From the NCBI GenBank assembly GCA_905178155.1, contig CAJINV010000005.1:3947556-4011555 (forward strand): a stretch of DNA of 64,000 nucleotides. Reading direction: 5' to 3'. The position numbers and the translations under genes were made by a program. The stretch is from Amoebophrya sp. A120. Taxonomy: Eukaryota > Protista > Dinoflagellata. Below the pieces are notes generated by a model. The model did not search any database. It was not told the origin of the DNA and saw only the letters and a list, made by a program, of their open reading frames with translations. This document shows, in pieces, positions 3,928 through 61,100 of the stretch (the first letter of the stretch is position 1; every line of letters starts with the position of its first letter).

Positions 3928-6348
3928 TCATGTGCCGCGTGCTTTCGGGCTAAAAGAGACCACCGGCTTCTCGACCTTGAGCCCGGAAACCATGTCGCCG
4001 TTTTCGTACAGAAGTCGCACGGTGCAATTGTCATTTTCTAGACTTCGCTTGCCCGCCTCGAGGATCGCGGTCACCATCAGCGTCGTCTTTCCCGTCGGCA
4101 GGTCGCAGTCGCAGTCTTTGGCAGTCCTTTTTCCCTCGTTGATCTCTTTCGCGGCCTCGACAAATTTCTGGAAGCTGACGTAGCCGTACCCGCTTTGCCC
4201 GCAGTAGCAATTTCGGGAGTCGGGCACGTTGCGAATGTACAGCGGATTCAGCGACTGCAAGCCGTTCGTTTGCTCGCCGGCAAACGTGTACCCCCGGTGA
4301 CACTGGTCCGTCGTTATTTCGCCCTTCTCCATGAGGCAGAAAAAGCGCTGCTGACTGTGCACATCCGACTTTGCCGCGGTCCACGAGGCCGTGTACGTCG
4401 CGTGCCCAAAGGTTTTCGGCGACGGGGCTGCCGCGCTTTCGCTCTCTTGCGGCGTCGTCGCTGACGATGCTGCAGCAACATCCTCAACGTTAATATTTTC
4501 CCACTCCGCCATGAGCGTAATCGTGTCTTCGCAGGGACCTGTAGTGTAGACACAATCAGATGAATCTTCATCACGTGGTCGCAGGAGAAGCACAGGCTTG
4601 TGCACGAAAACACGATTTAGAGCATTGCTCGCCTGCCTTTGCGCTAATACAAGCACACACGCACATGGTAGTTTTTGCGACGTTACTAAACAGGTACAAA
4701 GATGACGACGGGCACAAAAGTGAAAGTCGGTAAAAAAGCTTTCGGGACGAGATATTAAAACCAAAATACGTCCTAGCAGCTCCTCTGCGACGCCCGTCGA
4801 CGCGAGGGCACGGACCGATACGCACCGGGCGCGACCTTGCATCATCCAGACGTGAAGGTCCACGTGGTGTGAATTCAAGTAGTAGGAAATATCGCTTGAG
4901 AGGCCGGCCCACGAGCGGAAGGTCTCCAGCTGAAATTTTGGCTGCGACATGTGGGAGATGCACTGCAAACATGGTCGTGCTGTCAGGATGCTATCAGAAG
5001 CAAAGGCAGTGACGCGAAAATCGATCACGTGCACTCGAAAATTCTAGCTAATATTTCTCGTGCTCTACTACGCAACCATATGCAACATGTGCACCGAGCA
5101 ACAGTGCGCCATGCAGGACTCTTATCTCAGCAACGTGACATGCAAGCATTGGTGAAGGTTCTTGCCCTGACCTTGATGTGACCATGATGCATCTGCAGGA
5201 TAAAGCTCGTGAAAAAGTTAAACCGACCCAGATCACCGCTGTGAATGCGCAATTTATGCACATGAAATTCGGGTTGAGCGAGTCAAAATCTGCGGTGTTC
5301 AATAACGAATTGCGTCAGCTCTTATTTGAAAAGCCTTACAGCGATTGAAGATACACGGGTCATGCCATCGTGATGTGCCTCATGCATGTTCCTTCGCTGT
5401 GCGATTGCGCAGAGTCGTAAAAATGCAAACAAGTCAAATACATTTACATTCATCACGACAAGTGAGTATGCTGATGCACCCGTATCCTAGTACGCATTTG
5501 ATGACAGGCACTGACTGATGAATTCTGAACAGGATAAATCCGTGCGTCATTGTACATCGGGTCGAATCTCTTGTGCACCTCAATTTGCAGCAAAAGATTT
5601 TTGGCCTCCGCGAGAGCGACCAGCTCCAAGTGCTCCTCCAACGTTTTCACCATGGGTTTTGTGCACATCACGTGCAGGCCCCTCTGCAGCGCGGCCTTGC
5701 AGATTTCAAAGTGAGTGTCATCGGGTGTGAACACGGAGCAGATATCCCCCGGCTGAAACGCTTCCACCGCTTCCCGGTACGCTTGCGGGTCCCGCGCCAC
5801 GCCTTTTTTGGGAAACTGCTCGAAGCTGAGGTTTTTCACGTTGTCGAACTTGATATTCTTCGCAAAATGCTCCCGAATCTGCTCAAACTTGTCACCGTTC
5901 GTGCCGCAGAGGCCGATCTTTTCGCCAATGAGTTTACGCTCGTGCATATCATGAGTAAAAGTAGCCCACCAACCCCCTAGTCAAGACAGGAAATAACCTG
6001 CTACGCAAATCTGGTTCTGGACATCGCTTTGGGGGTTGTGCATTGAAGTTTAGTTTTAGATACGGTGTGTGAGTGGGCGTAGCTGGTGCCCACGACGCGC
6101 CAAAAATTGACCGGCATACACATGCTGCGTGCAACATGACAAGGTGTCGAAGCGAAGTCGAAAGTGGGTGGTCTGGGGTTCATGCAGATTCGTGTGACAT
6201 CAAACATGGGGCGGGTACGCTTTTACACAGGATAACGCAGGTCAAAGTGGACAAGCCCGACCACTCCTAGCGATTTGTCGGATTTACTCTGACCCGACGG
6301 CGTGTAGCCCGTCACGTACTCGCCGACGCCACAGATCAGAGCGTTCAT
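3928..6348 (-). CDS. Gfo/Idh/MocA NAD(P)-dependent oxidoreductase (D-galacturonate reductase GaaA-like), multi-exon
   Basis: Motifs MNALICGVGEYVTGY...SDKSLGVVGLVHFDLR, VFTPDDTH, HVMCTKP, EVHKRFDPMY, MSQPKFQLETFRSWAG..SDISYYLNSHHVD, ASWTAAKSDVHSQQRF and GQSGYGYVSF. Confidence 0.85.
5947..6234. mobile_element. Introner family B (diverged copy)
   Basis: TATCATGAGTAAAA ... TTTTACACAGGATA; flanks GTGCA/ACGCA. Removal joins DLR|ERKLIG. Confidence 0.8.
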
Positions 6349-11216: not shown

Positions 11217-11321
11217 CGACTAGGATAGAGCAGTGTGGACGCCTCTCTGACGTGGAGTTTCCGACGACGTGGACGCCTCTCCGACTAGGATAGAGCAGTG
11301 TGGACGCCTCTCTGACGTGGA
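11217..11321 (+). repeat. 40-bp direct repeat pair
   Basis: CGACTAGGATAGAGCAGTGTGGACGCCTCTCTGACGTGGA at 11217-11256 and 11282-11321. Confidence 0.85.
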
Positions 11322-13089: not shown

Positions 13090-15807
13090 TCACTCCTGCC
13101 TCGTCTTCTCTTTTTTTTCAAACAACATGATCGTACAAAAATGCATCCTGGCAAGCTCCAGAGTGGATGAAAAGGATATAGTACCTGGCTGCATCTGGTG
13201 CGGTGTATTAGATTGCCCGTTGCTGTTTTGCAATACGGGGGGCGGGGTTCCGCTCTGAATCATGGCCATCAGCTGGTTGACCAAGGACTGTTGAGAGCTA
13301 CCGAGATTTGTTGGGTGGCTGCTATTCGGATCCATCCCACAACTCCCGTTCTGCTGCGCGCCCTTGCTGCCGGCAACGCAGCCCGGCACTCCGGTCCCCG
13401 GGGGTTGCTGCGGGCCACAGCTTCCCACAAGATTGCTGTTCGACGCGGTGGTAGACAGGGACACCAGCGGTGGGGGCGTCAGCACCGTGGACAAATGATT
13501 GTTTCCGCTGGTGTTGTTCATGATCACATTGCTCGGCTGCTGCTGGTGCTGCTGCTGGCCGCCAGTGGCGCAGCCTCCAGCTTGGCCACCGGGGAGCGGC
13601 GCCGGAAACTGCAGCTGGTGGTTCGCAGACGTGTTTTATTGTGAGGAAATATCCCCCCACCCCATATCAAAACGAAGTTTCTGATGCTGGATTTGAGTAC
13701 ACAAATCAGGTTTGTCTTGCAGAAAGTGCTTGGCGGCAATTTCTGAGCCTGTTTGGGTATGCAGAGGGGTAGTAATTACGCATGGAAAACAGGTTTGCAG
13801 TAGCCGAAAGCGCATGACAGATTGGCTTTGGAATGCGCCACATGGCTCCCATTGCCCTATAGGCAAGACAAAGACGATTTGTGACCACAAACCAGCATCA
13901 CAAGTTTTCATTTTGATATGGGGAGGGGGGATTTTTCCTCACAATATGTTTGTCGTCGACGTGGTTCCGTTGAAAGTCGACGACCTGGTTGACAACTGAA
14001 AAACCGGAGTCGAAGCGGACACGTGGTCCTGCTGCATCTGCTGCTGCATTTGGAGTTGATCCAAAAGCTGCAGCGGCAGCTGCTGGCTCTGCTCCACCTG
14101 CAGTGCGTTAGAAGTACTCTGCGAATGCTGCTGACCTGCCAGCTGCTGCTGCGAAGCAGAAGTGACCAAGCCGCTCGTCGTCCCACTTGATGAGGGGAGA
14201 GGAGGAGTGGCGGCGGTCCCCGCGGTGATTAGATTCGCGGTACTAGAGGTATTATTGCTCGCTCCACCACCTCCCCCACAGCCACTGAAAAGCTGCATGC
14301 TGCTCGGGCCGACGAGCTGCTCCAAGAAGGTCGGAAGCGAGGCTGCATGATTCGGTTGCCCGAGTTGTGGCTGTTGCAAGGACTGCGATGAACTGGGGAT
14401 GTTGGACAGGAGATTCATGCTTGTTCCCGGTTGCGCTTGCGCAGATGAGTTGTGCGGCTGAGGAAATAAGTTGAAGCTATCTTGTTGTACTCCCTGTTGC
14501 GGCGCCGGTTGCGAGGACAAAAGGTGATGCTGGAAAAGTTGCTGCCCAACGCCGGGCCCTCCTCCGAGAGGCTGGTCAAGAAAGGCAGGCAACGTGGGGG
14601 GTGGAGTATTGGAATGCACCACCGGCTGCGGTGGCGCGCCGGGGACCACCTGCTGTGAGGCTCCGTTCAATGACCCAACTCCCTGGATGCTGCTGCCATT
14701 CAAGAACCCTTGCTCCAACAGGAGCGGAGACTGTTGTTGTAACAGAGGCGGAAGATGATGCTGCTGGTTGTTTTGTTGATTTTGCGCGTGCATCTGCGGC
14801 GCCCCGGACGACGCGCCTTGCAGCTGCTGTAGGATTTGGTCTTGGTACACTTGCCGCGACAAGATCTCGGTCTGTAGCTGTTGCTTGAAAGAATCAAGTT
14901 CTTCGCGCGAGCGAAAGTTCATCGACATCAACAGTTCCGGAGGAATGGCGCCGCTCCCGGGATGACCGCCTGAAGACCCCGTTGCAGGAGCCAACTGGGA
15001 GACGCTGTTTTGCCCGACGAGATTTTCGAGGATTTGATTGGACCCCCCGAGGCTCCCGCCGGTCAAGTTGGAGAGCTGCTGCCGCAGTTGGTTCCCGGTC
15101 AGTTGCTGGAGCGACGCCTGCGAAAACTGGTTGGGCGCGGTCTGATCGAGAACGAAAAAGTTACCGCTTGATCCGCCGTCGCCAACTTCGGGCTGCGAAA
15201 GCTGCCCAACCATATTATGGCTGTGCTGCTGCATCGCATGCAATTGGGATGTGTTCCCGCTGTGGCCCCCTGGTAAGACCAGCTCTGGTTGCTGCTGCAG
15301 CTGCATCACCTCTCGATAAAGGTGCTCGGGGGAAGGCTCCACGGGCCAGGTCAAATTTTGCTGGTTCAGGTGCTGTGGCGGGCCGGATTGATGAGAGCTT
15401 GACTGCGGTTGAGGAGGCAGGTGGACAAACGGGTCTCCATGTGGTCCATGGTTTATGTTTTGTTGCTGCGGTAAAAATCCCGCCGCCCCGATCAGGTTGT
15501 CGTTGTAATTACTGTTCTGGAGGTTCATGTTGTCCACCATAGGATCAAAGAACTCAGTCTGGTGGAGCTGGTTAAAACTTCCATGGTGGTCGCCCATGCT
15601 GTGAGGACCGAGGGAATGGTTGTGGTTGTGGTACTTGCGACCTCCCTTGTTGCGCATTGGAATATCGTCATCGATGCGGAAGGGCGCGAGGCTCCGTACC
15701 TGATTTTTTGATGACCCTTGTACTTCTTTTTGTTCGAAAAAAAAAGAATGGTTCTGGGCACAATTGCAACTGGTTTGCGAACGTGGAAACAAAGGCAAAG
15801 CAGTCAC
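13090..15807 (-). CDS. Q/G/S/P-rich low-complexity protein region (possibly the C-terminal part of the CSD gene)
   Basis: ORFs 13939-15807 and 13090-13527 join in frame (TSTTN|TSANHQLQ) after removal of introner 13637-13946. Confidence 0.6.
13637..13946. mobile_element. Introner family C
   Basis: TIR TATTGTGAGGAAATATCCCCCCACCCCATATCAAAA and its reverse complement; TSD TGTTT (13632-36, 13947-51). Confidence 0.92.
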
Positions 15808-15955
15808 AGCTACTGAAATTCCATGATGCAGCTTATGTCTATGCGATTACATTTTTGAAATTGTACCGGCTTCGGCGGCGGCGGCAATGGCGGAGGACGA
15901 TCGGCCATAGAAACGTCGTGAGAAGCATGCACATGATGACCTGAATGAAAAATTA

Positions 15956-22990: not shown

Positions 22991-25413
22991 CTAGAAGGAT
23001 TCAGACCGGTTGTAATATCGCCAGTAGCAGTCTTCGAGCACCGCGGTCCACACCCCAACCGTGCCCCAGTTGATGCCACGAATCATGCCCTTCCGAAGAC
23101 CGGCCCACAGCGCTCCGCGGAACGGGTCCCGCGCTGCCTCGAGCGCGGCGTTGTAAAGGGAGATGCGGGGCTTGGTGTGCATTAGTGTCTTCACGCGATC
23201 CGGGTAGTTGGTGGCCACTTCCGCAATGGACCCGGTGATAGAACCGGCCATGAACCCAATCCCCATCTTTTGTAACAAGGAAGAGCTACTAGTGCTCGGT
23301 GCGCCGGGCTGTTGCGCTGGCGAGGCCCCCGCTGCGCCCGCGCTAGTCGTGGTAGTAGATGAAGAAGTGCCTCCACCAGCGGCCATGTCCTTGTTCTTCG
23401 CCACTGCCGTCGCGGGGCCGCTGCTAGTCGTGGCGAACATTGGCGCGAGAAGAAACTTGGTGGGGCCGATACTCTGCAGAACGATAGCGTTCGCGAGACT
23501 TTTGCGTACTACGCCGGCAAACACCCCCTTGAAGAAGGCGCGCATGCCGTCAAGCCGGTACAAGTGCTTACTGGCCGCGATGAATGACCGTTCTTGGTGC
23601 GCAATTTGAAAATTCTTCACCACCACTGGAGGCATCGCGAGAAACTCACCCGTGCCTGCAAAGCAAATTGATAATTTGGGTGCATGATACATTCACGTTG
23701 TCTTATCGGCACGAAAAATAGTAATTCATTGTGCTGACCTTCAAGCCGGAGAGTCACTGGGCTGCGAAACAAGAACGGAGTCAATAAGTAAGTACCTGCT
23801 GCCACCATGCTGCCGGCGAATTTCAAGACCTGGCTATCCGTGCGCTTTTTAACTTCCCGCTGGATGTTCTGGTCGATCAGCAAAGTGAGCCCGAATCGCT
23901 GGCCCTGCGCGATCGCGCCCATGGGGAGGCCCAAGACGTAGGTGGACAACGTGTTCGGGGCGCGCGCACCCACCTGCCGCAGTACTTTCGCCACGTCGAG
24001 CCAGTGCGTGGCGGTTGCGCTGGTGATACCCGCGAGACAGCCGGCCGACAATGTCAGTACCTGTTTCGCTTGTTTCGGCAGCGCGGGCCGCACGATTTCG
24101 GAGTCCTCCTTGGTAAGCTTTGTGGCGCCGCTGCGCGTCTTCGCGGTGTACTCAGGGAGCAGCTCTGCTCCCACACCAGGAATCAGAAATGGCGGCTGGT
24201 AGGTGATGGGAAAGGAGGACACTGCGCCCAACCGCTCGAGGAGCGGCACCAGTTGTGGCTCCCTCAGATCGAGGAAGATTTCCGTATCCGCCACGGGCTC
24301 AGTGATCACGCGACTCTTCAAGTCCAACAGCAGCTGGTACCGCTTCTGCTGCTCTGCGCTCGCGCTTTCTGGCAGCGCCACGGGGAACAGGCCGTCGAGG
24401 AGGTCACCTTTGCTTGCCGCGCCTGCGTCGGTGCGTGCTGTCGAGTAAGGAGGAAAAAGGTTCATGTAACTCGCCCAGGAGGAAGTACGTGTAGCCGCCT
24501 GATGTAACTCGCTCGCGTCGCTGGCACTGGGCCTGCTGGACGATGGAAGAGCGTAGTAGACCCAGCTCCGAAACGCGTCGAGCCAGTGTTTACTGGTGCC
24601 CTTAGCAGAAGAAGTGCTGGAAGACGAACCCCCAGCTTGTTCTCTTTCAGCGGAAGAGGACTTTGTGCGCGCCGAACTGAGGTCGAATCCCCGGAGGTAC
24701 TTCTCGATCTTTTCATCCTCATATGACAGTGCACAAACCCCCCTCCTCCTCATTTGTACATGCATGGACAGCAATACAAACACCAACACAGGTGGATGCT
24801 ATGCATGACAAGTTCATACCCTGAGTGTTGTACTGTTTAGACTCCCAAAATTTGTGATGCAGATAGTTCCACAGGGTAGCAACTGGATTTGACACTCTGC
24901 ATGACAAATGAGGGGGAGGGGGAGTTGTGCACTGTGATACCTCACCCGGCTCCTCCTCGATGCAACGCCGGATTTTTCGCAACTGTTTCTGCTGCTTCTC
25001 AAGCAACCGGACGCGGGAGAGCTCCAGGCGGTCGACCTCCTGAAGTAGCAAGTACCTGGTTTTTTTTTCCCATTTTATTTTCATTCAAAAGTCGTCTTGT
25101 GAAATTTCATCCACGCATCTTCATCAGTGTTGGCGCTCGCAGCATGCGCTGAAAGAAGTCGTTTGGTTTCTCGTGACAAAAAATAAACGCAAAAGCGCAT
25201 CAAAATGAAAGTATTATACCGTCTCTTTTCCAGAGCCGTTTCGACGCGATCGCAATGGTCGCGCACCTCATTTCGGGCTTCTTGAATCCTTTTGTTGATC
25301 TCCTGCACACGCACTTCAATGCCCTGCTCCGCGCTTTCAAGCTCGCGCTGCAAGAAGGACTGTAGTCGAAGGATTTCTTTCTCATGCTCAGCCTCGGGTG
25401 CGACGAGAGGCAT
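22991..25413 (-). CDS. Mitochondrial carrier (SLC25) family protein with long N-terminal extension
   Basis: Carrier signature variants THWLDVAKVLRQ, AMPPVVVKNFQ and NYPDRVKTLMH, plus DGMRAFFKG. Upstream coiled-coil exons join in frame across introner 24722-24939 (EEPGE|DEKIEK). The true start is uncertain. Confidence 0.75.
24722..24939. mobile_element. Introner family E
   Basis: TATGACAGTGCACAAACCCCCCTCC ... GGGGAGTTGTGCACTGTGATA; TSD CCTCA. Confidence 0.9.
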
Positions 25414-29596: not shown

Positions 29597-32500
29597 TCAC
29601 CATTCAGTTTCTCGGTAGTCCTTCAAAAACATACCGAAAGGTGGTTGCTGCTTCTTCTGTCCGGCGGCGCCTGCCCCACCGCTGGACCCCGCATCTTTCT
29701 CTTTGTCTGACATGGAAGCGTTATTTCCTTCGGCTTTGTCTGCCAAACACACTCCGTTGACGTCGTAAATCCACGAGAAGACGGGGTCCAGAATTCTTGC
29801 CGCCGCGTCAATCTCGTCGATCGGTGTTTGCCACTTGGACGAGACCGCGTGCTGGAACGCCTGCTTGACCGGCTTCTCGTCGTTGATCCACCCGGTGTCC
29901 ACCGAATTCATGAAGATGTTGCTATTTTTCGCGTAGTCATTGGCATATCCTGAGTAAAAACGTACCCACACCAGAGTCAAGCTGGGAAATCTGCTAGACA
30001 AATCTGTCAGCTTTTGCTGCTGCGCATGACAAGTTTGGCCTCGCAGTGTAATCCTGTTTAGCTTGTTCAGCAGCATCTGAGATCTAGCATATCATGCTGA
30101 TTCTAGCATCACAAATCCCACAACACGACTAGAGACTGCTTCTCATGGGTCTCCGCATGAGAGACATTTTCAGCATGCAGATTTGCATGGCAACTCTGGT
30201 GTGGGTACGTTTTTACTCAGGATATGGCACTGGTTTTCGTCATCATGTTGAGCGCGGCCTTGGCCATGTTGGTGTGCGGGTGGTTTGCCGTCTTGTACCG
30301 GTAGAATTTCCCCTCCATCGCGGAGACGTTGACGATGAAGCGCCGGGTGTGCGTGCCGGTTTGGCTTTTTTCCAGGAGCGGCTTCAGACGCCCGTTCATC
30401 ACGAACGGGGCCATGGCATTGATCAAAAAGCACTCGACCAGCTCCGGCGTCTCCACTTCCTCGAGCTTGAACACCCAGCTGTGGCGGTCGCGGTAGTCGA
30501 TCAGCTGCCCGTTCACGTCGGTGTAGCCGGGGAGGTCCTTCGACCCGAGCTTCACCTTCGCATCGTCCTTAACGCATAAATGTAGGTGCGCGTGCTGTTG
30601 CTGCGCGTCCAGATCCACTTCCACTTCCGAGGGGGAGGACGGTCGTGTGCTCCGTGAGGCGGACACGTGGTGGTCCTTCTGTTGGGTACTAGCAGTGTCC
30701 ATGTAGCAGGACGCAAGGGTCGTGGTTGTCGTGGTACTTTTGCAGCTGCTGCTCGACGTGGTGGTTCCTGCACGACCACTGTCAGCTGCGCTTCTATTTC
30801 CATCATTCCTAGCCTCCGGTGACGTAGACGTGCTCGACGGCACCGCCGTGGAAGTCGTCGACCCCGAACTGCCGGTCGGAGACAGGAACAATTCGTTCTT
30901 CAGCGCGGCTGCCCGCCCGTAGTCGTAAAACACGCCCTGGGTCGGACACAGCGAATCCTCGTCCACAAGAAGAGCAGGTGGTTGCTGCGCGTCGGTGCTC
31001 AACGGCACAGAAGGTTGTACATGTGGACTGGGGATTATATCGATATTATCCTCTCCACCTGCTGCGCCCTGCGCCAACATTGCTTGGCTCACCACGTCCG
31101 CACAAGACAGCTGCTCCTTCTCCCGCAGGGGCTCGTAGTAAGCTTGGGGCCGTCTTATTGTCTGACAAGCGTTGTGGATAACGCCATCCAGGTGGTCGTA
31201 GTTCTCCAATACCAAGTATGCCATAGCAAAGCAACCTCCATCCAGTCTCAGTTCTCCTGCAAAGTTGTCATGACTTTAGTTACAGTATTTCCAGACATTT
31301 TTCGCTCCTGCGCACACTCCGTTTGCGCAAGAGTACGCGCTGTGGGTCAACTGTTGACGCTGCAAGGCGCGTTGTGCGTGTTCATCGCTTTTTATTCACC
31401 ACCGAAACTACAGAAATGCACAGTTCATGTCGAGAAGCAGACCTGCAAAGTCAACGCTACGCATTTTGTGGCATGCAAAAGAGGACTCGCTGCGTTTGAG
31501 TCCACTTTTACGATGTGTTGCACAACCTTCAAAGGAACGAGGGACCATAGGAGGAGTTGTTCACTGCTTCATACGTAGTCGCACAACTGTTCGACCCGCG
31601 GTAGGAAGCGTAGGTCGACGCCGAGCAGAACTAGCCTGTCGGCAATGGACTTGTTGTTGTTTTCGGGGTCTTGGCGGAAAAACTGTTCCTTCCCGTAAAA
31701 ATTGACGAACCTCTCGAGACAATCGTTCCTGAACCGCGAGGTCACGAGCACAGTTGCGCCTGCGTTGAGAAGCTTCAGGGCCGTATGAAAACCGATCTTC
31801 ACGCGGCCACCAGTCACGAGGAAGATGTAGCTGTCGTTGAGAAGCGGCTGTTGGAACCGCTTGCTGTAGTTCAACGCGGCGCAGGGTGGGCACAAACTGT
31901 CGTAGAAGTGGTGAAGCGACCAGAACTTGATTTTACACACATAACAGGACCGAGGCCGCTGCAGCTGCACGCCAGCGGCTCTGCTGGCGCTGTCCTTGTC
32001 GTCCGGATGTTGACACGAGGAGAAACGGTCCTCCCCTTGATGTTCTTCGGTACAACTCTCAGCCGGCATGACTGAGCCCGACGCGACTTCGGCGCTCGCT
32101 GCCGAAGGTTCGTCGCGACCGCATGAAGACTGACGACTGCGTTTCAGGGACTCGGACCGAGACGTGCGGTTTGGAGACAGTGACTCATCGGCCATGCCAC
32201 CAGGCGAGACCCCAAGAGGCGCGGGACTACAAACTCCATGATCGCTAGTTTGTGGCTCCGCCTCTACTGCCTGCTTCGTGTCTTCCAAACTACCGGCCCC
32301 GTTTGCCAGCGCAGCAAGCGGCTCCTGAAACGTGTGAAAGGTTGCTCCGTCGGGAACCAAATTGAGTTCCCGCAAATCTGCATCGTTAACGTCGCACAAG
32401 CTCGCCATCGCCTGCAACCGACCCTGGCGGAGTGCTGTTTTGCGAATATCAAGAAAGTGAAAGCAAAATTTTTATATTCTTAGAACAATATTTCTTGCGC

Positions 32501-39121: not shown

Positions 39122-40533
39122 CTACCCTATCGGAGATGTTGCAACTTCATCGCCCTCTGCCACTGCGTCAAGCATCGGCACGCTTGGGCCGGCGTCGGAA
39201 GTGCCTGTGGTGCGGCGGTTCCTCAGAGCTAGCCTGGGCGCCCCGTGTCGCGGCGAATTTTGTCGTGCCGGCGGTAAAGCTAGTGTGGTAGGAGGGGTCG
39301 GGCCACTGCTGCTGCTGCTGCTCGCCAAGGCACTGCCGTCGAAGACCGAAGTCGTGGGCGCTTGTGGTGGCAGAAATATCGCAGCGGCCTCGTGTCTTGC
39401 TTCTTCACGAAGGAAACGTTCCGGCTGCGCGCTATACGGAATCTCCTGATCCAGTGGTCCTACGCTTGTGTAGACGGAGGGTGTCGTCCGAGGGCTGAGA
39501 AATCCTAGTCCCGCGGCATTTCGACTACCGGGCGGAGAACCGAATGACGCCGCAGGGCTGATAGTAAAGGCAATTCGTTCTTATACTTAATACTTTACAA
39601 AGCTACGAATCGCAGGCGTTTGGGCATCGGCAAACTCCCTTGAAATATAAATATATGATCTGATGCTACAAACACAAAGTAGCGGAGTATAGGTTTGTGA
39701 AAATTAGGCATGAAGCACCGAGCAACTCCATCTAGACTTTGACACGCTTTTTTTGCAGCAGCACAGCCTTCTTTCTATCTTAACTAACAGAGTCAAAAAG
39801 TAGAAGGTGTCAGCACTTACCCGAAGGGCAGCTGTGGCTGTGCGTCCTGACTTTGCGGCAAAACTGAGTACAAAAAAGGCTGCTGTAGTTGCTGCCCGGT
39901 CGTCGCTTCGACGGGCGCACTGTACACGTAGTTGCTGCCGGCTCCGTAGCCGTAGACTGCCGACCCATCGGTAGCATACGCGTTTCGCCCCCGTTGCGGC
40001 GCGGCGCTGGCGTTTTCGAGGAACTGCGACGGTCCTCCGGTGCGACGTCCCAGATGTACTACGTCGGGGCTGCCCTCTCCCGACTGGGGCGCCTCGGCAT
40101 CGGTCTGCTGGAAAAGCGGTGCCCGAGGAACGGGAAGGTCGCCCGTGCCTTCGCGGGTGCTGCTGGGGGACCGAAGGTGATGGTGCAGGGCGTTATCCTG
40201 CGGTCGGTCGTGGAAAGGCATGCGGGGTGCAAATAGTCCACCGCTCGCCGAGGGTGCCGAGCCCGAAGCGAGGGCGAGAGCGCCGGAGGCGCTCAGCCGC
40301 GAATTGCTGCTCAGGCTGTTGTATGCATTGCAAAAGTATCGTACTAGTATAAAGCGCAATACAAATTTTTCCAGAAGGAAAAACGGAATTTGTAATGCTG
40401 ATTTCGCTAAGAAACAAGATTTGTCACGCATGATTGCAATTAGTACGAGTACGATACTTTTGCACAGGATATGTTGCTAGAATCCGCCAGGTCCTCCCGA
40501 CCAAGGAGCATAACGGAAAAACAACGTGTTCAT
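39122..40533 (-). CDS. Low-complexity S/P/A-rich hypothetical protein, multi-exon
   Basis: ORFs 39817-40321 and 39122-39560. The frame continues across introner 40322-40471 (ADSSN|SLSS). Ends uncertain. Confidence 0.45.
40322..40471. mobile_element. Introner family D
   Basis: TATGCATTGCAAAAGTATCGTACT ... AGTACGATACTTTTGCACAGGATA; TSD TGTTG. Confidence 0.92.
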
Positions 40534-46500: not shown

Positions 46501-49500
46501 ACAACCCGGCGCCCCCAACCCGGCTGCGGGAATCTTTCTGGCAGCCCGGACGCTCCAGGGTGGGGCCTAACGCCTCAGGACACCGGCAAAAACTGCCGGG
46601 AGACCGAGTTGGCGCATTCTCGAGCTTCGAGAACGCGGGCAACCGACTTCGTTTCGCGCTACTTTGCTTCGCTTGTGGACGTTAGCAGCCGCGGCACAAA
46701 GTCGATTTTTTGCGGCGTGCCTGGATTTTTTGCGGATTTTTTTCCGATTTTCTTAACATTTTTGAAGTCGGTCCAAATCAGTACTAACCTGTCTGCGATG
46801 GTGGTACGGCGGCTTTTCGCAGGTAGTTGCGTACGATCATCTCGATGGCCAGATCATCAGGCTTTGCTTCGTTTTCTCGGGGCGTCTGATGCTTTTTTGG
46901 TTCCGTCTCAAACCGAAAAAAGTTGGGAACGGGGACGGGAGACAAGCTTTGCTTGTCACGCTCATAGCCAGGTGGCGAGGGTGTGCGGCCCATCTGGCGT
47001 ACTGCCCTGCGGTTTTGCTTCACGTAGTTCATTACTTTCTTCGGGGATGTTGATCCGGCGCTGGGTATTGTTCTCGGGGATCTTATCTTCTCCTCTCCTG
47101 GCGGCGATCTCTCGTCTTCCCGGTTGGTGATTCCAACTCTATTTTCCACCGTCGTGGATAACGTCCGCGAGGTTGTTAAGTTCATCGGGTCGTTTCGCTG
47201 AGCCTCGCCGGACTGCTCGAGAGTCGATAGTGTTGTAGTCGCTTGCAAAGGCATAGGCAGCTGCTGGTGCCCCGCGCGGCTTTGCGAGGAGGCGGACGCG
47301 GTGAGGGTTTGATCCATGGCGCCTGCAGTGCGCGAGGTCGATATTTTTCCACCACCACCGGAGGATATCGTAGCATTTAATGTTCCTGGGACGCGGCTGG
47401 GACTGCTCGTGGTACCTCCAGACGAGATAGAGCCGCCAAATTGTAGTTGTTGAAAGGTGGAACCACTGGTAGTTCCCGCAATGCGGAAGCGTGGCGCCGG
47501 GCGGCAGGGTTTTGCGTAGGGCGATGGCGAACGGTCAGGGGACCGCGACGGCGCGCGGTAGGGGGACGAAACTTCTTTGCCCGCGAACGCCTTGCCTGCG
47601 CGCCAAACCGGGGGCGGGCTTTGGGATCGCTGCACCTCCATAGACCGTTCCCGGAACCCAGCGCGCTCGGCCTCCTTCTCGGCGAGCTTTTTATGGGGGC
47701 GTCAAACTTGTATTTGCCTCAGACCGTAAAAAAATTTCTGCGCGCATTTTTTCGCGGCGGGAAGCTAGTAAACCTGTGCCCGCAAGTGAGGGGCTGACTC
47801 GAGCGCGGTTTGTTTTAGCTAGCTTGTCAGCAGCAGTGCTCTAGTAGGTAAGTGAGTATTGACGCGGAGGAGGGCGGGGCACAGAGGGTTCTTTTGTGGC
47901 TGGCGTTTTCACTTAGAAAGCGCCGGGCGCGCGCAATATTTTGCTCCATTTTCCGGATTGCTTTCTCCGTGCAGCCATTTGCCGCTATGGCCTGGGTTAG
48001 GGTGTGAGGCTGCAGACGCCCCACGAGATGTCTACACAGGCCTTGGCGTCGTCGTCTCTAGCGGGCACCACACGCATATGTTGGCCGCGAAGGCCTTTCC
48101 GGAGGCCCCCCAAAGAGGGAGGGCCGGAGGGGTGCCCGGAACCCTAAAAAAAAGGCTATCGCTTTTTCTTCGAATCACGATGGTGCTACCCCTCCCCAAA
48201 AGGGGTCCCGGAACCCCTCCGGGAAGCCTTTCCGAAAGGCTCTCGGGCTTTTCGCATTTTCAAGAACGAGCCGCAAAGGCAAAAGGCGCGCGCGCCTGCC
48301 GGAAAAAGCGCGCACGGCTGCGCGACATTAGAAACAAGCGGAAACGCAGCCGCGGCCGGTTGCGTTTGCGCCCTTGGCCCCGACCGACCTGCACAGATTG
48401 AGGCCCATTGTCTAGCGGCTGGACTGCAGGAGGACCTGCTGCAGCACCTCCAGGCTGCAGGGGCGCTCCGAGGCAAGTCCGTGGAGCAGCAGCGCCGGAT
48501 AGCTCCGACTTTAGCCACCGAGAAGTGCTGCGAAGAAGCTAGCTAGTTCATTCGGTATGCAATGTAGCGAGAGGCTATATGCGTGCAACATGATGGATAT
48601 CAAATACAAAAAAAGGCGCGCGGAAAATTTTTTACAGCTTGAGGCAAATACAACGTTGACGACCCCATACTTTTGTGGTCCGAAAAACTCTGACAGCATA
48701 TCGTGCCGTACGTCCATCATGGTCCGTGATCCATTCGGATTCAGTCCGTACTCCGCCGCATCCGGGTCTTTCGGAACTGGGAAGGCTTTCTATGAAAGTG
48801 CACAAATCTTCCCTCGTGGTCCGTCATTTGTGATGCACTACACTCCATGTAGTCGTGTAGAGTTCGTTGTCATGCGGAAGGGGAAGCTTCTCTGTTGCTT
48901 CTGTTGCTGTTGCTGTAGTAGAGGCCATGCAAATGATGGGGACGAGGGGGAATTGTGCACTCGCATACTTTCTCGTTGTCGAGGGTGGATGCGAGCTGCT
49001 TCCGCGCGTCGATGCTCATCGACTCCCAGGCCTTCTTCGGCACCGCCGGCCGTATCGAAAACAGGTCGCGCGGTGCCGGCCGGCTCTTGTGCTCCTGGTT
49101 GCGCGGCCGCATCTGGAAGGGGTCCCGCTCCACGTCTATCAGCGCGCGATGAATCTTTTTGAAAGATAGGCATAGACTCAACATTTCTGGGACGCGCAAA
49201 GACAGGTAAAGAGATCCACGATCTCGCAGAACAAGCGACATACTCGAATGCACTTGGAAATTATTATTTTCGGAATGTATCATAGTGACTGACCACTCTA
49301 CTGCGAACTGGAATATGAATCAATGCTGGCAGCTCCAGGTGGAAGCAGAATATTGCGTCTAGTTTTAATATTCTGAGTACAACTAGTTGAGTAAGTACCT
49401 TGTCGTTCGGGTTCAGCGATCCGCGTAGGTTTCGTTTGTAGAAGTAGCTCTCCGTGGCGTTCAGGTCTTTCTCGGTGACACTGTAGCCTACTACCTTCTC

Positions 49501-52500
49501 CGTGGTGTCCAGTTTCTGGAAGTGCATATCGCCCTGCATCATGAGGCGAAAGCAGGCCTGGCAGGCGACGCCCTTCCCGCGCTCGACGACCCGGAAGTCT
49601 CGTTTGCGGTGCATGTCCCGAATGTCTTCGATCATCTTCTCCAGGTCCTCGGCCACTCGGTCGAAGTTCTCGTATGAACTGCAAAAGTATCGTGCTCGTA
49701 GTAATTGCAGTCATGCATGACAGTCCTGGCTTCTTAGCTAATTCAGCATTACAAATGCCTTTTCTCCTTCTGGAAAAATTTGTGATGCTATTTCTACTAG
49801 TACGATACTTTTGCAATGCATATCTCGATCATGGTATCGATGTCGTTCTCCCACGTTTCGTACGTGTTTTCGTACCGGTCGACCGCTGCCTGGGTGTAGT
49901 CCTTACGCTGCTGCTCTAAGTCGATTGCAAGTGCGGCAAACTGTGCAGTTTGGTTTTCATCTATCACAACTCATCTGCGATTTTTTTGGGCATGATCTTC
50001 GCTTGTCTAGACGTGAACTTTTGCTTTCGGAATTGGAGGAGCACTTTCTTAGAACTGGGGATATATAATATAAATATCATGAAACCTAACCAACGTTCTT
50101 GGGGAAAAAGAAAAAGCGTGAAGTGTAACTGAACTGCTACTGCCCCAAATGAAAGGAAGTGCCAACGCAATGATAAACACTGCACCAGCAGAATTGTTTA
50201 AATTCACAGAAACAAACAGATTGTTATCAAGAAGGACCTCCTCTTTTAGTTGCTTATCCCGCTCGATCCATTCTTTGTCTTTTTCCGGAATTTTTACTTC
50301 GTAGATGACGTCGATCTCCAGTTTTAATTCGTCCATTGCTTCGTAGAGAGCTGCCTCCTTGGCCCCGATACTTTCGACCTCTTCCAGAAGCTCTTCGTAG
50401 AGACGCTTGATCTTTACTAGGTAGTTTTCCGCCTTGAGCAGCGGATGAACGATGAGCCACGCTTCCCATCCGTTCTTCAACGCTGCTGCCTTCGACCGGT
50501 TGCGCAAACCAAGCCGGCGCCTAGGAATTTTGCGTGTCAGCGCTTGCGTATGCTCGGGAATTTGATTGAGGAAAGTGAAGAGATTGCAATTGGCTTGTTG
50601 TTCAGCTAACTGAGTAGTGTGTTTACTGGAGATAAGTAAAAAGCTTAGGCTGCATCTGCAACTGCATGCGACATAAGGACCGGCTTTTCTGTACGAGGCA
50701 GAGCAAATAGAAAATTGTTAATACTGGATGAAGGCCGACAGACCGATGGTGATTTTGGTGTTTTCCTTGTGTATGCGGTCGTAAACGATGTAGCGCTCCT
50801 CCATGCGATTGCAGAGGTCGTCGAAGTAGGTGTAGTCCAGTTTTTTGCGCAGCCGCTTGTACCGCTTTTCGTACCGGCAGTACCACTGCCACCGCGTGAA
50901 CAGCAGCCGCTTCCAGTGGCGCGCCTCCTGTTCCCAGAGACTCTCGGCGTAAATCTCGCACGCGTGTTGGTACCGCTCCGCCTTTTTGCGTTTCAGGTTG
51001 ATCCGCCGGGCCAGCGCGTGCAGGAGCGAGGCGCGCTCGTGCCGGGTTTTTAGGAGGAGCTTGTCCAGCCGCCGCCCCTCGGCCTCCAGCTGGGTGTTTT
51101 CGGCCACCTTGTTGTCGATCTTCTCGGTCTATGAACTGCAAAAGTATCGTACTGGTAGTATTGCAATACAAATTGGGTCAGCATGAAAAATGGAGTTTGT
51201 CATGCTGATTTAGCTTGAAGAAGAAACTTGTCTTCCATGACTGCGATTAGTAGCAGTAGGTACGACTACGATGCTTTTGCACAGGATATGGTCCACCTCT
51301 GCACGAATGTCATGGCATACTCGAGCTTATCGTCCCACTTCCCGAGCTCCTCCTCCAAGCGCGCAATCTCCTCCTTTTCCAGTTCGGACTGGGCCTTGTC
51401 CCAGTCGGCTTTGGCCTCCTTTTCGGCCTTCTCCGCCTTCCACGCCTCGTACTCCGCCAACCCGTCCTCAGAAAGATCGGAGGGTGTGCCAAGCCCGCCC
51501 CAGTAGTCGCTGTCTTCCTCGTCCTCCTCGCTGCCCTCTGTTTGATTGTTGTAGTAAAAGAATAGTGCTTAGGGGTGATATTGATCATTTTGGGACCTTC
51601 TTCGGCGCAAAAAAAAAGCCTTGCAGTTGTAATTATGTAAGTAAGCACTTTGCATTCCAAAGAAACGAATCTTCACGAACCCAAGCCTGCTTTACCATCC
51701 TTTCATGAGCGAGGAGCTCGACCTTCGAGAGCAGCACTTCATCTTTTTGCCTACAGAGGAACCAAGAAATGTAGCAGCACTTTCCAACAGATAGTAAGTA
51801 CTAATACCCTCTTCCTCATCTTCCTCCTGATCCAAGACGGATCTGCGGCGGGGCTTTTTCTCTTCGTCTTTCTTTTTCTCGCCGAAGTCTTGCGCCATGG
51901 CGGCCTCCGCGATTTTCTGGATCTCGTCGATCTCGATTTGCCCCTTGGCCATTTTCGGGTCCGTTCGGGCAAAGGTTTTGTCCGTCGCGACCTTCGCGTC
52001 AAAGACCCGGACCGTCTGGCCTATCAAATGCAAAAGTGTCTGGGTCTGGAAGATTGCGAGACTTGTCATGCTTGTCTGGCATGACCAAAAAGTTTGTGAT
52101 GCGTGTCCAAGAAGAGACCCTTTTGCCTGTCATGCAAAAGCGCAGCTTTTCATGCGAAAAACGCAACACAAAGCAGCGCAGACTTTTCTCATGCTTGGCT
52201 GTGCATTACAGAGCATTCACTATTCCCGACGCAGCATTACAATTTTCCAGACCCAGACATTTTTGCATTTGATATGGCCACAGTGGTAGCAAAAGATCCA
52301 GTTCGGACGCGGCAGCATGTGATCGCCCAGCCGACCGCTACCCGCGATGCTCTATCAAAATGAAAAATGCCCCCACCCCCAGCTTGGCAGCATTTGTGTT
52401 GCAAACCTTTCCAACAGAAACATTCCCCGTCTTGCAACTCTCAGCATCACAAATTTTCCATGCTGAATAGGTCAAATTTGTGTTGCGAAGTAGCCCAACA

Positions 52501-55132: not shown

Positions 55133-58100
55133 TTACTTTTTCGGTGATGGCACCCCCGCTGGAGTACTGGCCTCCTTTTTGGGGCTGTCCAGGTTTTCCT
55201 TCGAGCTTGTCACGTTGTTTCTGCTCCGACTGGTGCCCTTGAAAAGCCCTCCGAGGAAGCCTACTCGCTTCTGATCCTGCTCGCTTTCGTCGCTTTCCTC
55301 GCTGCTGTGCTCGTTGTAAAAGTCAATCTTCTCGTTGGGGTCTGAGATCGGAACGAGAGCAAACCTGGTCAGAGGAGGACAGGTTGTTTGGTAGTTTTAT
55401 GTTTGAAATCTACTGCAATGGTCCAGCTGGTGGCCGAAAGTCGGCTTCGGCAATAAAGTCGACACAAAGAAATTATGATCCTCGCCGCGGAGAGCCACCT
55501 CATCTATCATCATCATGTCATGTTCCTGTGAACAAGAGAATATCAAATGCAAATATGTCTGGGTCTGGAAGGGTGTAACTTGCAATGCTGCATTTGGATT
55601 CTAAAAAAAATCTGTGTTGCAGGAATAGCAAAAGAGGTGCGTTTTTTGCTACGCGGAGGGAGTAATTCTCATGCAGTTGTATGGGCATCAGAAAGCCGTC
55701 ACAATATCTGTGACGCTAGGGCATGCATCACAGACATCGCCGGTGATGCAAAATCTGCATGACAAACTTCCAGACCCAGACATATTTGCAATGCATAAAG
55801 AATCAATCGAATTTACATTCCAAACTCGATCTGCAAGTCGACCATCTGTTTTTCGTCCCAGGCACGTTTCATGCGATCCGCTTCTGATTCGTACTCGCCC
55901 TTCGCCAGCGCTGCCGGAGCCGAAGAGTTCGCACTCGGGGACCCGCCGCCGGGGGTCGTCGGCGGTATGGCGCCGGGTGTGCTGGCCCCCGGTGTCGTTG
56001 CTCCGCCGGGGGAGCTGCTGCCCGCGGGCGTGGCGGCACCACTTGGCTGACTTCCAAATATCCTGGGGAAAAACGTACTACCCAATTCATAATTTCAGTA
56101 TATTGTTGTGTTTGTGACGCAGATCGTCATCCGGCTCGCCCGTATGTTCATGAGAGCCATTTTCTCAGTCATGTGATTTGGGAACTTCTTGTGACGCTCG
56201 AACTAGCACAAGCCAGACATGGCTTCGTGCTGCAGCTGCGCTGGTCACCATCAAGCACGTGATCGCAACTAAAAGAATTGTGGTCATACAGCGAGAGTGG
56301 CTCGCGCTCGCAATCGCAAAACTAAATGATTTCCCATCATGATTATCATGTACTCACGAGGACTGGGTATGTCTTTGCACAGGATATCTCCGTCTTCTGG
56401 CTTCGCACGCCGGAAGGGACTCAGGACGTTCATCAACTTCCTCGCGCCGCGAACCACCCCGGTAGCGGCTCCCTTGAGGGCACCCGACACCATTCCCAGA
56501 TCCTCGTCTGCGTCTCGCTTTCGCTTCAGCAGGGTCACGGTCTGCTTAAACTCGGGCGAAAGAATCTCCTTCGGTGTAATGGAGCCCGAAGCATAATGCC
56601 TGACGCATGCAATTATTCATCTTCATTCAAGCACCATACATATTCATTGACATAATTGCGTTCTCAACAAAGTGCCAACAGAACCCGGTGATAGAGCACA
56701 GTAGGCACGCCTGGCTTCTACTTCTACAATTAATAGCACAACAAAAGACGAGCGAAAGTAGCATATCTTTGCAACGGGGGTAAGTAGGATTTTTCCTACG
56801 TCATACATTGCCACAGTAGTACAATCAACTTACTAGATTACCGACGTTTGTGGAACGACGGATGCATTACTAGTACTGCGCAACAGAAATAACAATAAGT
56901 TTAAGTTCTTATACTTTTTCCGCCCATTGACGTAGACTTTTATTTCGATCTTCAGATTCTGGGGCTGCGTGATGAGGAAGTGACAACCGAAATTGAAGAC
57001 CGTGTCGTAGCTGGGTTTCCTCTTCAGAATGTCCTTGATAATCTCGGGCGGGTAGTGCGCAAAACCGGCAATGTCGTGGATGGGCATGCTTGCGAAATGC
57101 TCATTGCCAATGCTCAGGTTTTCGACCATGGCCTGCATCGCGTGTGGTACCGCGTCGTCCACGAGCGCCGGCACCACCTTCGCAGAACCGCCCCCAGATT
57201 TTTTCACGTCCTTCGGGTCCTCTGCCTCAAAAGTGACGTAGACTTTGTCCTTTTCAAACTTCTTCGGGATGCCTCGCACAGCGACTAGTCTGCACTGGAA
57301 CAGCATCACGTTCTGGTAGTCCTCCAGTGGCAAGCGGACGGGGGTCTTCGAGGGGGACTCCTTCGCAACTTTGCTTCCCTTTTGCAACACAAACATCCCC
57401 CCGGTCGGGACTCTTCCAGTTGTTTGGCATGAAAAGTTGTCCTCTGACTCATGCACACATAAGAGCGGCTTTTCTTCCCTTGCGCATACAAGAGCATGTA
57501 TGGCCAGAAGATGTCAGTGAAAAAAGAGACAGGCAAAAACTTGCGCAGCTTTAGACGGGTGAAGCCGCAAGTGCGTAGTGCATTTCTTGTGTCCGCATGG
57601 TGGAATCGCCTGCATGCTATAAAAATTTCTAGTCCTGCTCTTACACGGACCAAAATGTCATGAAACACACGGCCGTCCGGGGGCAGACATTGCATTGCGT
57701 AGGGATTCTTCAATTCCGGTCGTGGCAGCGCGTCAACGGTTGTGATCGGCTCGAGCTTCAGCGTTTCTAACGAGACATCCAGGTGCCCTCCCCCTTCTAT
57801 CCTGAGTAAAAACATCCCCACACCAGAGTCAAGATGGGGATTTTGCAACACAAACCTAGAACTTTTGGGGGTCACGCATCACAAGTTGCAGTCCGTAGTG
57901 TAGTGCAGGTTCGCAAGGCCAGCTGCATCAGAAATCCATCTGCTCATCCTGTTTACAGCATTACAAATTCCAAAACACGACTAAAAATGCCTCTCCTGGC
58001 GAAGCGCATTACAAATGTTCCTGGCATTGCAAATCTGCATGACAACTCTGGTGTGGGGACGTTTTTACTCAGGATACCTTCCTCTTCGTCTTCCTGCCGT

Positions 58101-61100
58101 AGCGGAATCGTGACCGCGCCGTCCTGCGCCGCTATTTCGCCGACGGGAATGCGGAAGTGCCCGAGTTGGTATGCATTGCAAATATGTCTGCGTCTGGAAA
58201 CATGTAACTTCTGATGCGCATTTTAGACCAGAGAGAGATCTGTCATGCATGGACCGCAAAAGTTGCTCATTTCTTGTCACCAAAAGAGGGAACTTGTCAT
58301 GTGGATTAGGCATCCCGTAACCTTCTCGAAACCTGTGATGCTAGGGCTTCCTTGCTAGACCTTCTGCGTCATGCAAAAACAGCATGACACTTTCCAGACC
58401 CAGACATATTTGTATTTGATAGCTGGTCATCGGAGTCAATATCGGAGTCGAACAACTCCAACGAGATATCGCCAGGAAAAATGCCCCCCCCCGAACTTGG
58501 CAGCATTTGTATTGCAAACCTTTCCAAATGAAACATTCGCCCTCTTGCATCTATCAGCGTCACAGATTTCCGATCGTGAATAGCAAAAATTTGTATTGCA
58601 AAAGACCCCAGCAAGAGCGGCGCTTGTCATGCAAGCGATGCGATATACGCTTCGACTCTGCATCAGAAAGATTCATACTCCTTTCATGCATGACAAAAAG
58701 TTTTCATTTGGAAACTTCGCATCACAAATCATTGCAACTTTGGGGGTGGGGGCAGTTTTCCTTGTAATACGACAACAGCTGCCGCTTGTTGAACATGAAA
58801 AAGTCGTAGATCTGGTCTTGCCACACCGGATTCACCGTGTATTGCAACGAAAAATCCCCCCTCCCCATATTAAAAAGGTATCCTTCGGAAAATTTGTGAT
58901 GCAGATTTGTGGTCACAAATCATTTTTGTTTTGCAAGAAGGCAAGCGCTGGGAGATGAGCCGCATTATGGGCGCGATTTGTCATGCTGGTTGGCCTACAG
59001 GGCAGGCGTTTCCCATGCTATACAGCTAGACCCGTGCGCTCCTAAACAGCTTAACTATCTGGCCACAATTCCTTACAGCAAGACAGACCTCATTTGTGTA
59101 CGCAAATCCAGCATCAGAAGTTTCGCTTTGATATGGGGAGGGGGGATTTTTCCTTTTGATACCGTGTGCTTGATCACTTTGCTTCGAAACTGCCGCGCGC
59201 CAACGCGGACGATGGCGTAGGGGTCACTCGTCGCGGCGCCGAAGAAATTAAAGTCCTTCGCGAGCAGGTTCTTCCCTTTGTGCAGTTGAAACCGCAACAC
59301 CGCTTCTGGCCGTGGGAAGGAAAGCCGCGTCATGTCGATCTAGTGCGTTTGCTTTCAACATTGCGGTGGTGAGAGAGTGCAGCTCACTTCATCACTTCTT
59401 GTTTTGCATGAAGAATATATAACGACAAACACGTCGCAGCTCGTTCTAATTTCGTACTACCTCAAATAAAAACTGCATAGGCCGAGAAGTTGAAGTGGAT
59501 TCTCGGTGTGTATCATACTGCTTCACTTTGCACTTAGCACAAACTAGAGTGCCGCGTGCTAACCTAAAACCAACGCACTATACCTCCGTCGGATCCGCAA
59601 CGGGGACGAAAATGCGATTTGGGAGGACCAGGGAATCCGTGATAGCGTTCCGGATGATGGACCGGATTGTGCCAGCCAGTACGGTATCGATTGCAAACAT
59701 GTCTGGAGAGTAATAGATACACAATGGTGCTGCGTGATGCTCCCCCTACGTGACGCTGTGGAAAGAAAGTCTTCTTCTCGCATCATCATCGTAAGTAATT
59801 ATCATCGTTAGTTGCCGCAACAAATACCCTCGCGGCGTATCACGACCTGGCAAGCGTTTTTACCCCTGGAACGAACAGGGCCTCTCTACTCAAAGAAACG
59901 GGACATTCGAATGTGCCTTTGAAAATAACTACTGATGTATAAATGTAATCCCGGCACAGTTCCAGTCCCAGACATATTTGCAGTTGATACACGGGCATGT
60001 CAATCAGGTTCGCAGCTCCGGTGAAGTCGACGTCCACTGTCGGTGGATTGATCATGAAGATCTGCAACCGATTATCAGCTGCAAATCTGTTTGTGTTCTT
60101 TCGGGAACCAGCAGCTAAGCACAGGGAAGTCGAATGTTGCTGCGTCTTCTTCTGCTCATGTAGTAGACTTCTGCAGCACAATCTTTCCTCTTTTGTCATG
60201 ACAAAGCATGGGTAGTGTTTAGTATTTGAGCACCTATCCGACATAACTGTTGCATGCGCAGGATGGAACCACTTGTTTCCTGCGCGATGTCACGACAAAT
60301 GAAGGCATCTTCACGCAGTCGTAGTATTCGCGGTCATGCACTGAAACCAAGACAGTTCTGGTTGTAGTCATCGATGTAAACAGGAAGAGTTTAGCTCCCA
60401 ATGGGTCTGCTCTGACGCCGTCCCAACAGACACAAACAACCATGCACAGAGTAGCCACCAACCACCGGCATTGTCTCCATCAATGGACGCAAAACCAGAG
60501 AAACGTATCCCAAAGAAAGCTGCTAGCATGATTTGTTTGTGCTTCTACGTATACAAAACAAGTAAGTGCGCACAAGCATCAGAGGAAAAAGTCGTCCATT
60601 GTCGAGCGTTGGTTCAACGCATGCGAAAGCACAGACATTGTTACAGAAGTTGTCTCTATTTCTATATGTTGGCTTGACAGGACGAGCGCAAAGTCATCAA
60701 ACCTGATGCGGTAGCTACTTTCCGGAGGATACGACGGTTCCTTCGATCACAAGCTTCTTCAGACCTGTGGCGGGAGTGGGTTCAGCGTTTTATTAGAAAG
60801 TATCGGCATGATGGCGGCGTCAATGTCTATCCACCTCCAAAATTGTATAAGCAAACATGAACGGATTTCGGAAACTCGAAACTCATGAAGGAGCTCAACG
60901 AGCTCTTCTAGCTTGAAAAGTGCATCTGCAGCAACCTTTTATTGATAGTCATATCTACAATTTCATCGCAAGACTCACGAATAATTCAATTTCGTGAATA
61001 ATTCAAATTGAATAACTCAATTTCATGAATAATTCAAATTGAATAATTCAATTTCATATCAAGTCTCAATCTCAGTCTCAGTCTGAATCTTAAATCTTAC

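Follow-up and report, generated by a model that had tools for sequence, protein, structure and literature searches.

Cut positions of introner introns relative to their TAT and ATA ends in Amoebophrya sp. A120

How are the borders of an intron set when the intron is a transposon-like insertion that does not begin with GT or end with AG? The question is raised by a window of 64,000 nucleotides (nt) from Amoebophrya sp. A120 (the whole stretch analysed: contig CAJINV010000005.1, positions 3,947,556 to 4,011,555), in which minus-strand genes are interrupted by elements of 150–980 base pairs (bp) that begin TAT and end ATA. These are the introner elements of Farhat et al. 2021 (PMC7789003), a known element type. 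Non-canonical introns make up about two thirds of all introns in A120, and they have been described without a signature, their borders unknown. In the window the intron is N+TAT...ATA+NNNN – the cuts fall 1 nt ahead of TAT and 4 nt past ATA, whichever letters stand at the boundary – and this very probably holds for the element type. A single positional rule, N|TAY...A-N6|, would unite the non-canonical introns as one class, permit correct gene annotation, and make the excision mechanism directly testable.

Fourteen elements in the window have at least 15 of 20 matches between their terminal inverted repeats (TIRs) and an exact 5-bp flanking repeat, compared to none in each of 20 dinucleotide-block shuffles. 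In all 14 of these young copies the target site duplication (TSD) is exactly 5 bp, not 4, 6 or 7. The TAT and ATA ends and the 5-bp duplication proposed in an earlier note on this DNA are thereby borne out. That note took the intron to be TAT...ATA plus the whole downstream 5-nt copy, with the upstream copy exonic, a geometry said to mirror the staggered DNA cut of insertion.

Transcript evidence for the splice register

The register of a splice is written here as a/b, where a is the number of nt before TAT and b the number of nt after ATA that lie inside the intron (b = 5 − a); the register of the earlier note is 0/5. Transcripts were represented by assembled contigs of runs X1–X3 (two samples, one study), whose kind was guessed as RNA and in which minor cuts are invisible. 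These contigs behave as mRNA, skipping GT-AG introns that contigs of run X5 retain. Contigs of X2, X3 and X5 and reads of X8 were aligned on 44001–64000, and contigs of X2, X3 and X1 on 55800–61000. The raw-read run X8 was rejected as an A120 source: 42 of its reads were placed, all on a repeat, so the run is not from this strain.

Eleven transcript joints, each present in all three runs, lie in 55800–61000. Two are GT-AG and nine are non-canonical; the latter are given here with the values of a that they permit, together with the intron at 51130.

51126..51289, minus strand: introner intron 51130, downstream fifth base retained in mRNA (WTEKID); X2 and X3 pieces end at 51125 with 0 mismatches, a 1 to 5; also P0241 and its homologue P0242
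56055..56387, minus strand: introner intron 56059, duplication almost fully diverged; joint 56054/56388, three of three runs, a 1 or 2 (1/4 or 2/3)
57377..57702, minus strand: fully decayed introner intron 57381, C-TAC...AAA-AGGG; joint 57376/57703, no slide, three of three runs, a 1 (exactly 1/4)
57794..58077, minus strand: young introner intron 57798, perfect TSD; joint in three of three runs, slidable, a 0 to 5
58166..58422, minus strand: introner intron 58170; joint permits at most 1 nt before TAT, a −1 to 1
58463..58770, minus strand: introner intron 58467; a −1 to 3
58836..59162, minus strand: young introner intron 58840 in C2-domain coding sequence, C2 Pfam match on the upstream exon; joint in three of three runs, a −1 to 6
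59681..59990, minus strand: introner intron 59685, downstream fifth base retained; joint 59680/59991 excludes 0/5, a 1 to 5
60069..60454, minus strand: old introner intron 60073, 5' end TAC, not TAT; joint 60068/60455, a 1 or 2 (1/4 or 2/3)
60502..60732, minus strand: old introner intron 60506; joint 60501/60733, no slide, a 1 (exactly 1/4)

The sole value common to all ten introns with RNA evidence is a = 1, and a = 0 is excluded at six. Register 1/4 fits nine of nine non-canonical joints in 55800–61000; 0/5 is excluded at five of them and also at 51130, where the register rests on contig piece ends and the annotated protein. The 3' cut, put by the earlier note 5 nt after ATA, is placed by the RNA contigs 4 nt after it, and the 5' cut 1 nt before TAT. 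The upstream copy of the duplication is exonic for four of its five nt; the fifth exonic base comes from the downstream copy, whose fifth base is retained in the mRNA. With four exonic bases from one copy and one from the other, the target is rebuilt and removal is seamless. A 5-bp duplication can be removed seamlessly only if the two offsets add up to five, and 1 + 4 = 5 satisfies this condition for neutrality.

Junctions whose two TSD copies differ had been suggested as the place to look for the retained bases in cDNA. At 51130, 59685 and 60506 the mRNA carries the downstream fifth base, the result that had been named as speaking against 0/5; 58170 and 58467 give identical mRNA either way, and 5947 is silent at the protein level. 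The joints at 56059 and 60073 likewise exclude 0/5. RNA editing was rejected, since the retained base is always the genomic downstream base. Contigs of X5 are unbroken across 55773–57825 and 59137–60969, so the joined forms are not present in that DNA.

The cuts therefore lie inside the duplication, after its fourth base on both sides, and not at the element ends that were joined in DNA: they do not coincide with the DNA nicks of the transposon and do not mirror the insertion chemistry. For old copies, the claim that TA(T)...ATA and 5 nt are removed before the frame resumes is correct as to length and frame – the removed pieces at 5947, 31217, 56059, 60073 and 60506 are 293, 362, 333, 386 and 231 nt, the element plus 5 nt – and the real split is 1 + 4 nt. 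The idea of a ruler holds; its constant was wrong.

Annotated proteins and the combined count

Three named Amoebophrya sp. A120 proteins (P0001, P0121 and P0241) have 99–100% identity to three exon translations of the window, which identifies the host as A120. Mapped to the DNA, with the last short exon of P0241 left out, they gave 19 junctions: 7 GT-AG and 12 non-canonical. The non-canonical ones are 51130 and the following.

4953..5203, minus strand: decayed introner intron T-TAT...ATC-TCCC (element 4957), Gfo/Idh/MocA gene; the sole placement yielding annotated P0001
5251..5537, minus strand: decayed introner intron T-TAT...ATA-AATT (element 5255), Gfo/Idh/MocA gene; P0001 permits 1/4 or 2/3 and excludes 0/5
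5943..6235, minus strand: introner intron, element 5947–6234, copies TGCGT/TGCAC; P0001 permits 0/5 or 1/4; protein evidence alone
29942..30225, minus strand: young introner intron, element 29946–30224, perfect TSD, short-chain dehydrogenase gene; P0121, slidable
31213..31574, minus strand: old introner intron, element 31217–31573; P0121 permits 1/4 and 0/5; protein evidence alone
47688..48670, minus strand: 978-bp introner, perfect TSD; P0241, RNA piece ends at 47686
48787..48968, minus strand: introner intron, perfect TSD; P0241, slidable
49669..49823, minus strand: introner intron 49673, perfect TSD, internal match to the 51130 copy on the opposite strand; P0241
52018..52275, minus strand: introner intron, perfect TSD; P0241
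52349..52663, minus strand: introner intron, perfect TSD; P0241
52775..53041, minus strand: introner intron, perfect TSD; P0241

All 12 permit 1/4, and three (51130, 5255 and 4957) exclude 0/5. At 4957, 0/5 would yield SFMSQP instead of SYMSQP; homologues have Y in 100 of 118 and F in 16. At 51130 the homologue P0242 (78% identical) likewise reads WTEKID. Homologue residues at the 5255 junction are uninformative on register, and 31217, like 58170 and 58467, has the same mRNA under 0/5 and 1/4. FDLR at 5947, which had been taken to mark the upstream copy as exonic, is indeed typical of the family, with 76 of the 94 pattern matches in 120 homologues, and is present in the annotated A120 protein. 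It does not discriminate between the registers, because both encode it.

In total, RNA or protein data are available for 21 non-canonical introns, which lie in four genes. Register 1/4 fits all 21, and three of these junctions are uniquely placed; position relative to the element ends, and not the boundary letters, sets the cuts, as the earlier note had proposed. When a TIR profile is derived from the young copies without RNA (14 elements), it has its peak at offset 4 at 12 of 12 3' ends of old or mismatched copies and at offset 1 at 11 of 12 5' ends. The exception is 57381, where the 5' register ranks second. Three decayed copies (4957, 5255 and 57381) had been missed before and were recognised here.

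Conserved positions at the cuts

In the 12 old or mismatched copies, T at +2, A at +3, Y at +4, A at −7, T at −16 and T at −17 are invariant. The base at +1 is free (T3 G4 A2 C3), and positions −1 to −4 take all bases. RNA-resolved copies have A, C or G at +1, protein-resolved copies have T, and no resolved 3' end is AG; the hallmark of U2 introns, G at +1 with AG at the 3' end, is absent from the elements. The chance of TAY together with A at −7 at one freely placed junction is ca. 0.009.

The GT-AG introns of the host have the donor GTAY in 9 of 11 cases and no pattern at −7. All 21 element introns have TAY at the donor core, matching the host consensus at +2 to +4: in register 1/4 the element TAT falls on the host donor core, and only the G is missing. 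TAY and the −7 A persist at 57381, 60073, 5255 and 4957, where pairing is lost.

AG dinucleotides are bypassed 4 nt beyond the cut at 56059 and 2 nt before the cut at 57381. The AG at 56059 had been pointed out as an alternative acceptor that preserves the frame; it does so only with the donor assumed at the time, not with the real donor, and it goes unused in the contigs. A 3' U-tract was also weighed as a requirement: TTT stands at −17 to −15 in 11 of 12 old copies, against 8 substitutions in the 5' AAA. This was rejected because young spliced families carry GTG or TGA there. No drift of +1 towards G was seen in old copies: where the copies differ at position 5, the bases are T, T, T, A, A, C, C, G and G.

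A purine occupies the first downstream exon base, position 5 of the duplication, in all 14 young copies (p = 0.0005 relative to coding composition; five positions tested) and in 9 of 12 old ones. A pyrimidine stands there at the RNA-confirmed junctions 58170 and 60506, so the purine is a preference only. Position 2 is a purine in 13 of 14 young copies in transcript orientation, with no mirror bias at position 1. The skew at positions 5 and 2 suggests a strand-specific filter at insertion or establishment.

Proposed mechanism and alternatives

Fixed 1/4 excision likely points to an altered splicing machine. The element introns may well be removed by the host's own altered spliceosome, with the terminal Gs relaxed and the terminal stem aiding, and we give this reading somewhat more credence than doubt. 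The element TAT at intron +2 to +4 would be recognised as the host donor G|UAY is, but without the need for G at +1. The position of the 3' site would be measured from the other end of the element, the invariant −7 A being a candidate branch or anchor nucleotide, and the terminal stem would help to bring the two ends together and hold them in register. As both ends are the same inverted repeat, insertions of either orientation would become introns; only elements with a duplication of 1 + 4 = 5 bp would be neutral. Two observations favour a spliceosome that is less strict at +1 and at the 3' site: the elements match the donor core, and the match survives in copies that have lost the pairing.

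Published work has some bearing on this. A120 has no detectable U1 or snRNP27 (Farhat et al. 2021, PMC7789003), and loss of SNRNP27K accompanies a preference for U at donor +4 in yeasts (PMC10581693). In Table S4 of PMC7789003 the nine leading non-canonical A120 pairs all have T at +2 and none starts TA. These pairs fit the 1/4 register, but aligner bias may contribute. For strain A25 the nine leading pairs of that table all begin with TT, and its repeats begin with TTA followed by two purines; this would again give T at +2 and A at +3, a pattern like GTRAG in which another base stands for the G.

A bolder version is tentative, and we regard it as possible rather than probable: the A120 spliceosome may have dropped both terminal Gs and the AG acceptor and may read the symmetric transposon end twice, with UAY as donor core and the first A of AUA as branch point 7 nt from the 3' cut. 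If so, any insertion of this 5-bp-duplicating element, whatever its orientation and target sequence, would be spliced out without trace, and the tens of thousands of new introns would be accounted for.

Several points weigh against the rule and its spliceosomal reading. A spliceosome normally requires the +1 G, and the −1 G at the second step. The sample is limited to four genes and one RNA study, and the proteins used as evidence derive from published gene models. A YURAY context is missing at the −7 A, whose neighbouring bases are not complementary to U2 and vary between families; in young copies this A is base-paired as part of the stem. The pairs in Table S4 account for ca. 20% of introns, and aligners favour GT, CT and AT starts. 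A predicted in-register stem is retained in 10 of the 12 old or mismatched copies (none for 5255 and 4957), which a structure-guided enzyme would also fit.

Such an enzyme is the alternative that survives best, though we consider it doubtful. It would be separate machinery of the kind proposed for Euglena, recognising a paired UAU:AUA motif, cutting at fixed distances in the 1/4 register, and favouring a purine at the start of the exon that follows. In layout the elements resemble the Euglena code N3CDG...CH'G N5-6|R (PMC12501133), and the retained stems, the purines at position 5 and the failure to find U1 in A120 (PMC7789003) agree with such an enzyme. However, the identity of the element TAT with the host's spliceosomal donor consensus GTAY would then be coincidence. 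Two annotated introns (5255 and 4957) keep 1/4 without a predicted stem, terminal pairs are broken at 57381 and 60073, and 58170 and 60506 do not have the preferred base.

It is unlikely that 1/4 applies to most copies without being strict genome-wide, with some families or decayed copies using other offsets. Farhat et al. report splice sites variable relative to the hairpin, with inverted repeats (IRs) 1–5 nt from the sites (PMC7789003), and the number of uniquely placed junctions here is small. Against this, there is no exception in 21, and sliding inside the duplication alone yields an apparent spread of 1–5 nt.

Hairpins flanked by direct repeats are also the classic setting for reverse-transcriptase template switches. 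That the joints are such switches, or assembly artefacts, is very improbable. The RNA evidence consists of contigs only, but joints with 0–1 nt of shared sequence (57381, 60506, 56059 and 60073) have the same register, the joints share contigs with GT-AG joints, and removal restores conserved protein motifs. Register 0/5 itself, which predicts the net removal of element plus 5 nt seen everywhere and is compatible with 13 of 21 junctions and with FDLR at 5947, has practically no probability left, as it fails at eight: 51130, 56059, 57381, 59685, 60073 and 60506 by RNA contigs, and 5255 and 4957 by annotated protein.

Comparison with known elements and introns

The elements share their organism and traits with the A120 introners of Farhat et al. 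2021 (PMC7789003). The IRs of 8–20 nt that start with TAT, 7 variable nt and AAA are present, and the end consensus in the window is TAT plus seven variable bases plus AAA. The direct repeats of 3–5 nt over the exon/intron boundaries are present as 5 bp in all young copies. The elements are repeated in the genome and removed from mRNA, as seen from foreign flanks in X5 and from the transcript joints. Many foreign flanks begin at element ends in contigs of this DNA-like run, which marks the elements as high-copy and places their termini at TAT and ATA. They have all traits of miniature inverted-repeat transposable elements (MITEs): TIRs, a TSD, and short, non-coding, multi-copy sequence. Most A120 families are TIR DNA of unknown superfamily among 21 of 58 A120 rows of Gozashti 2025 (PMC12130899), where automated calls conflict across A120 families among the same 21 rows of one dataset.

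In contrast to the fixed register found here, the Farhat paper gives no terminal-dinucleotide signature, describes variable splice sites, and leaves the border position unknown; the variable-site description is repeated in PMC11282704, PMC11453091 and PMC12005148. The fixed N|TAY...A-N6| register was not found in the sections, legends and supplement text of Farhat 2021 (figures not covered), and no publication giving a 1/4 register was found in a literature search that most subscription papers lay outside. What would be new is the precise register rule, and not the element type.

The nonconventional introns of euglenids (Nomura et al. 2025, PMC12501133; PMC11170887) are a close parallel. They also have a paired terminal motif at fixed, unequal offsets from the cuts, free terminal bases, a suspected MITE origin, and a preferred purine after the 3' cut. 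The lineages are unrelated, the offsets are 3 and 5–6 rather than 1 and 4, and the motif is CDG rather than TAY. The elements do not follow the euglenid code and have N1 TAY...ATA N4 instead, and the A120 motif overlaps the host's spliceosomal donor consensus. The A120 rule is thus an independent parallel to the Euglena code, with fixed offsets from a paired transposon-end motif in both.

Introners of Micromonas, Aureococcus, Symbiodinium and Polarella (10.1101/2020.10.14.339549; PMC12130899) are also TIR transposons whose duplication is partly intronic, and in Polarella class 12 the donor is built from the last TSD base and the first element base. In these introners the donor must start with G, and an AG acceptor must be supplied by the element or the TSD, whereas A120 elements accept any base at +1 and use no acceptor dinucleotide. 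The non-GT/AG introns of Fritillaria borealis (10.1101/2025.08.15.670264) are likewise MITE-derived, and they are removed by an altered U2 spliceosome, which shows that such a machine can be adapted to the ends of MITEs. Their splice sites are the element termini (mostly AG-AC/AT), whereas in A120 the cuts fall in the duplication, beyond the element itself. A fixed spacing between an A and the 3' cut is also found in Entamoeba invadens (branch A fixed at −8), diplomonads and parabasalids (10.1101/2022.06.08.495308). The A lies there in a U2-type AYURAY motif with AG, while the −7 A of A120 has neither and its role is putative.

Related copies occur in both orientations: 49673 relative to 51130 inside the P0241 gene, and 40322 relative to 49673 (85% against 65%). 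The splice signals are therefore likely the symmetric element ends.

Other features of the window

Six further elements lie outside the introns above; the last five are predicted from DNA only.

55541..55797, strand not assigned: complete TAT...ATA element nested in GT-AG intron 55365–55816; loose end 55815 joins 55362 in transcript contigs
13633..13947, minus strand: young element, predicted intron; frame open after removal
24718..24940, minus strand: young element, predicted intron; frame open after removal
40318..40472, minus strand: young element (40322), candidate intron; no open frame over 90 nt on each side, one over a shorter stretch
63109..63434, minus strand: young element, predicted intron; frame open
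63493..63762, minus strand: young element, predicted intron; frame open

In the transcript contigs the outer GT-AG intron 55365–55816 is removed as a single piece, and the nested element leaves with it. The GT-AG intron 59340–59583 starts with GTAT, and pairing between its ends is stronger than in shuffled sequence (z −2.6); this intron may be an old introner in which an AG acceptor has since arisen. A repeat-rich region holds, at 45056–45451, two overlapping inverted-repeat pairs of the TAT...ATA type whose 5-bp flanks do not match. Degenerate tandem-like repeats at 43700–46600 and 61000–62700 are both multi-copy in run X5, and the latter sit within a 2.2-kb GT-AG intron (60765–62976).

Pfam matches identify P0001 as Gfo/Idh/MocA and P0121 as a short-chain dehydrogenase; P0241 matches no family, and the gene at 55–64 kb has a C2 domain. 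The recognisable genes of the window (1–64000) are all on the minus strand, like the unidirectional clusters described for Amoebophrya. One transcript contig of run X2, 7607 nt long, links the C2-domain gene with the P0241 gene across ca. 1.4 kb of intergenic DNA (53537–55362); it may represent a long untranslated region, read-through, or merged contigs.

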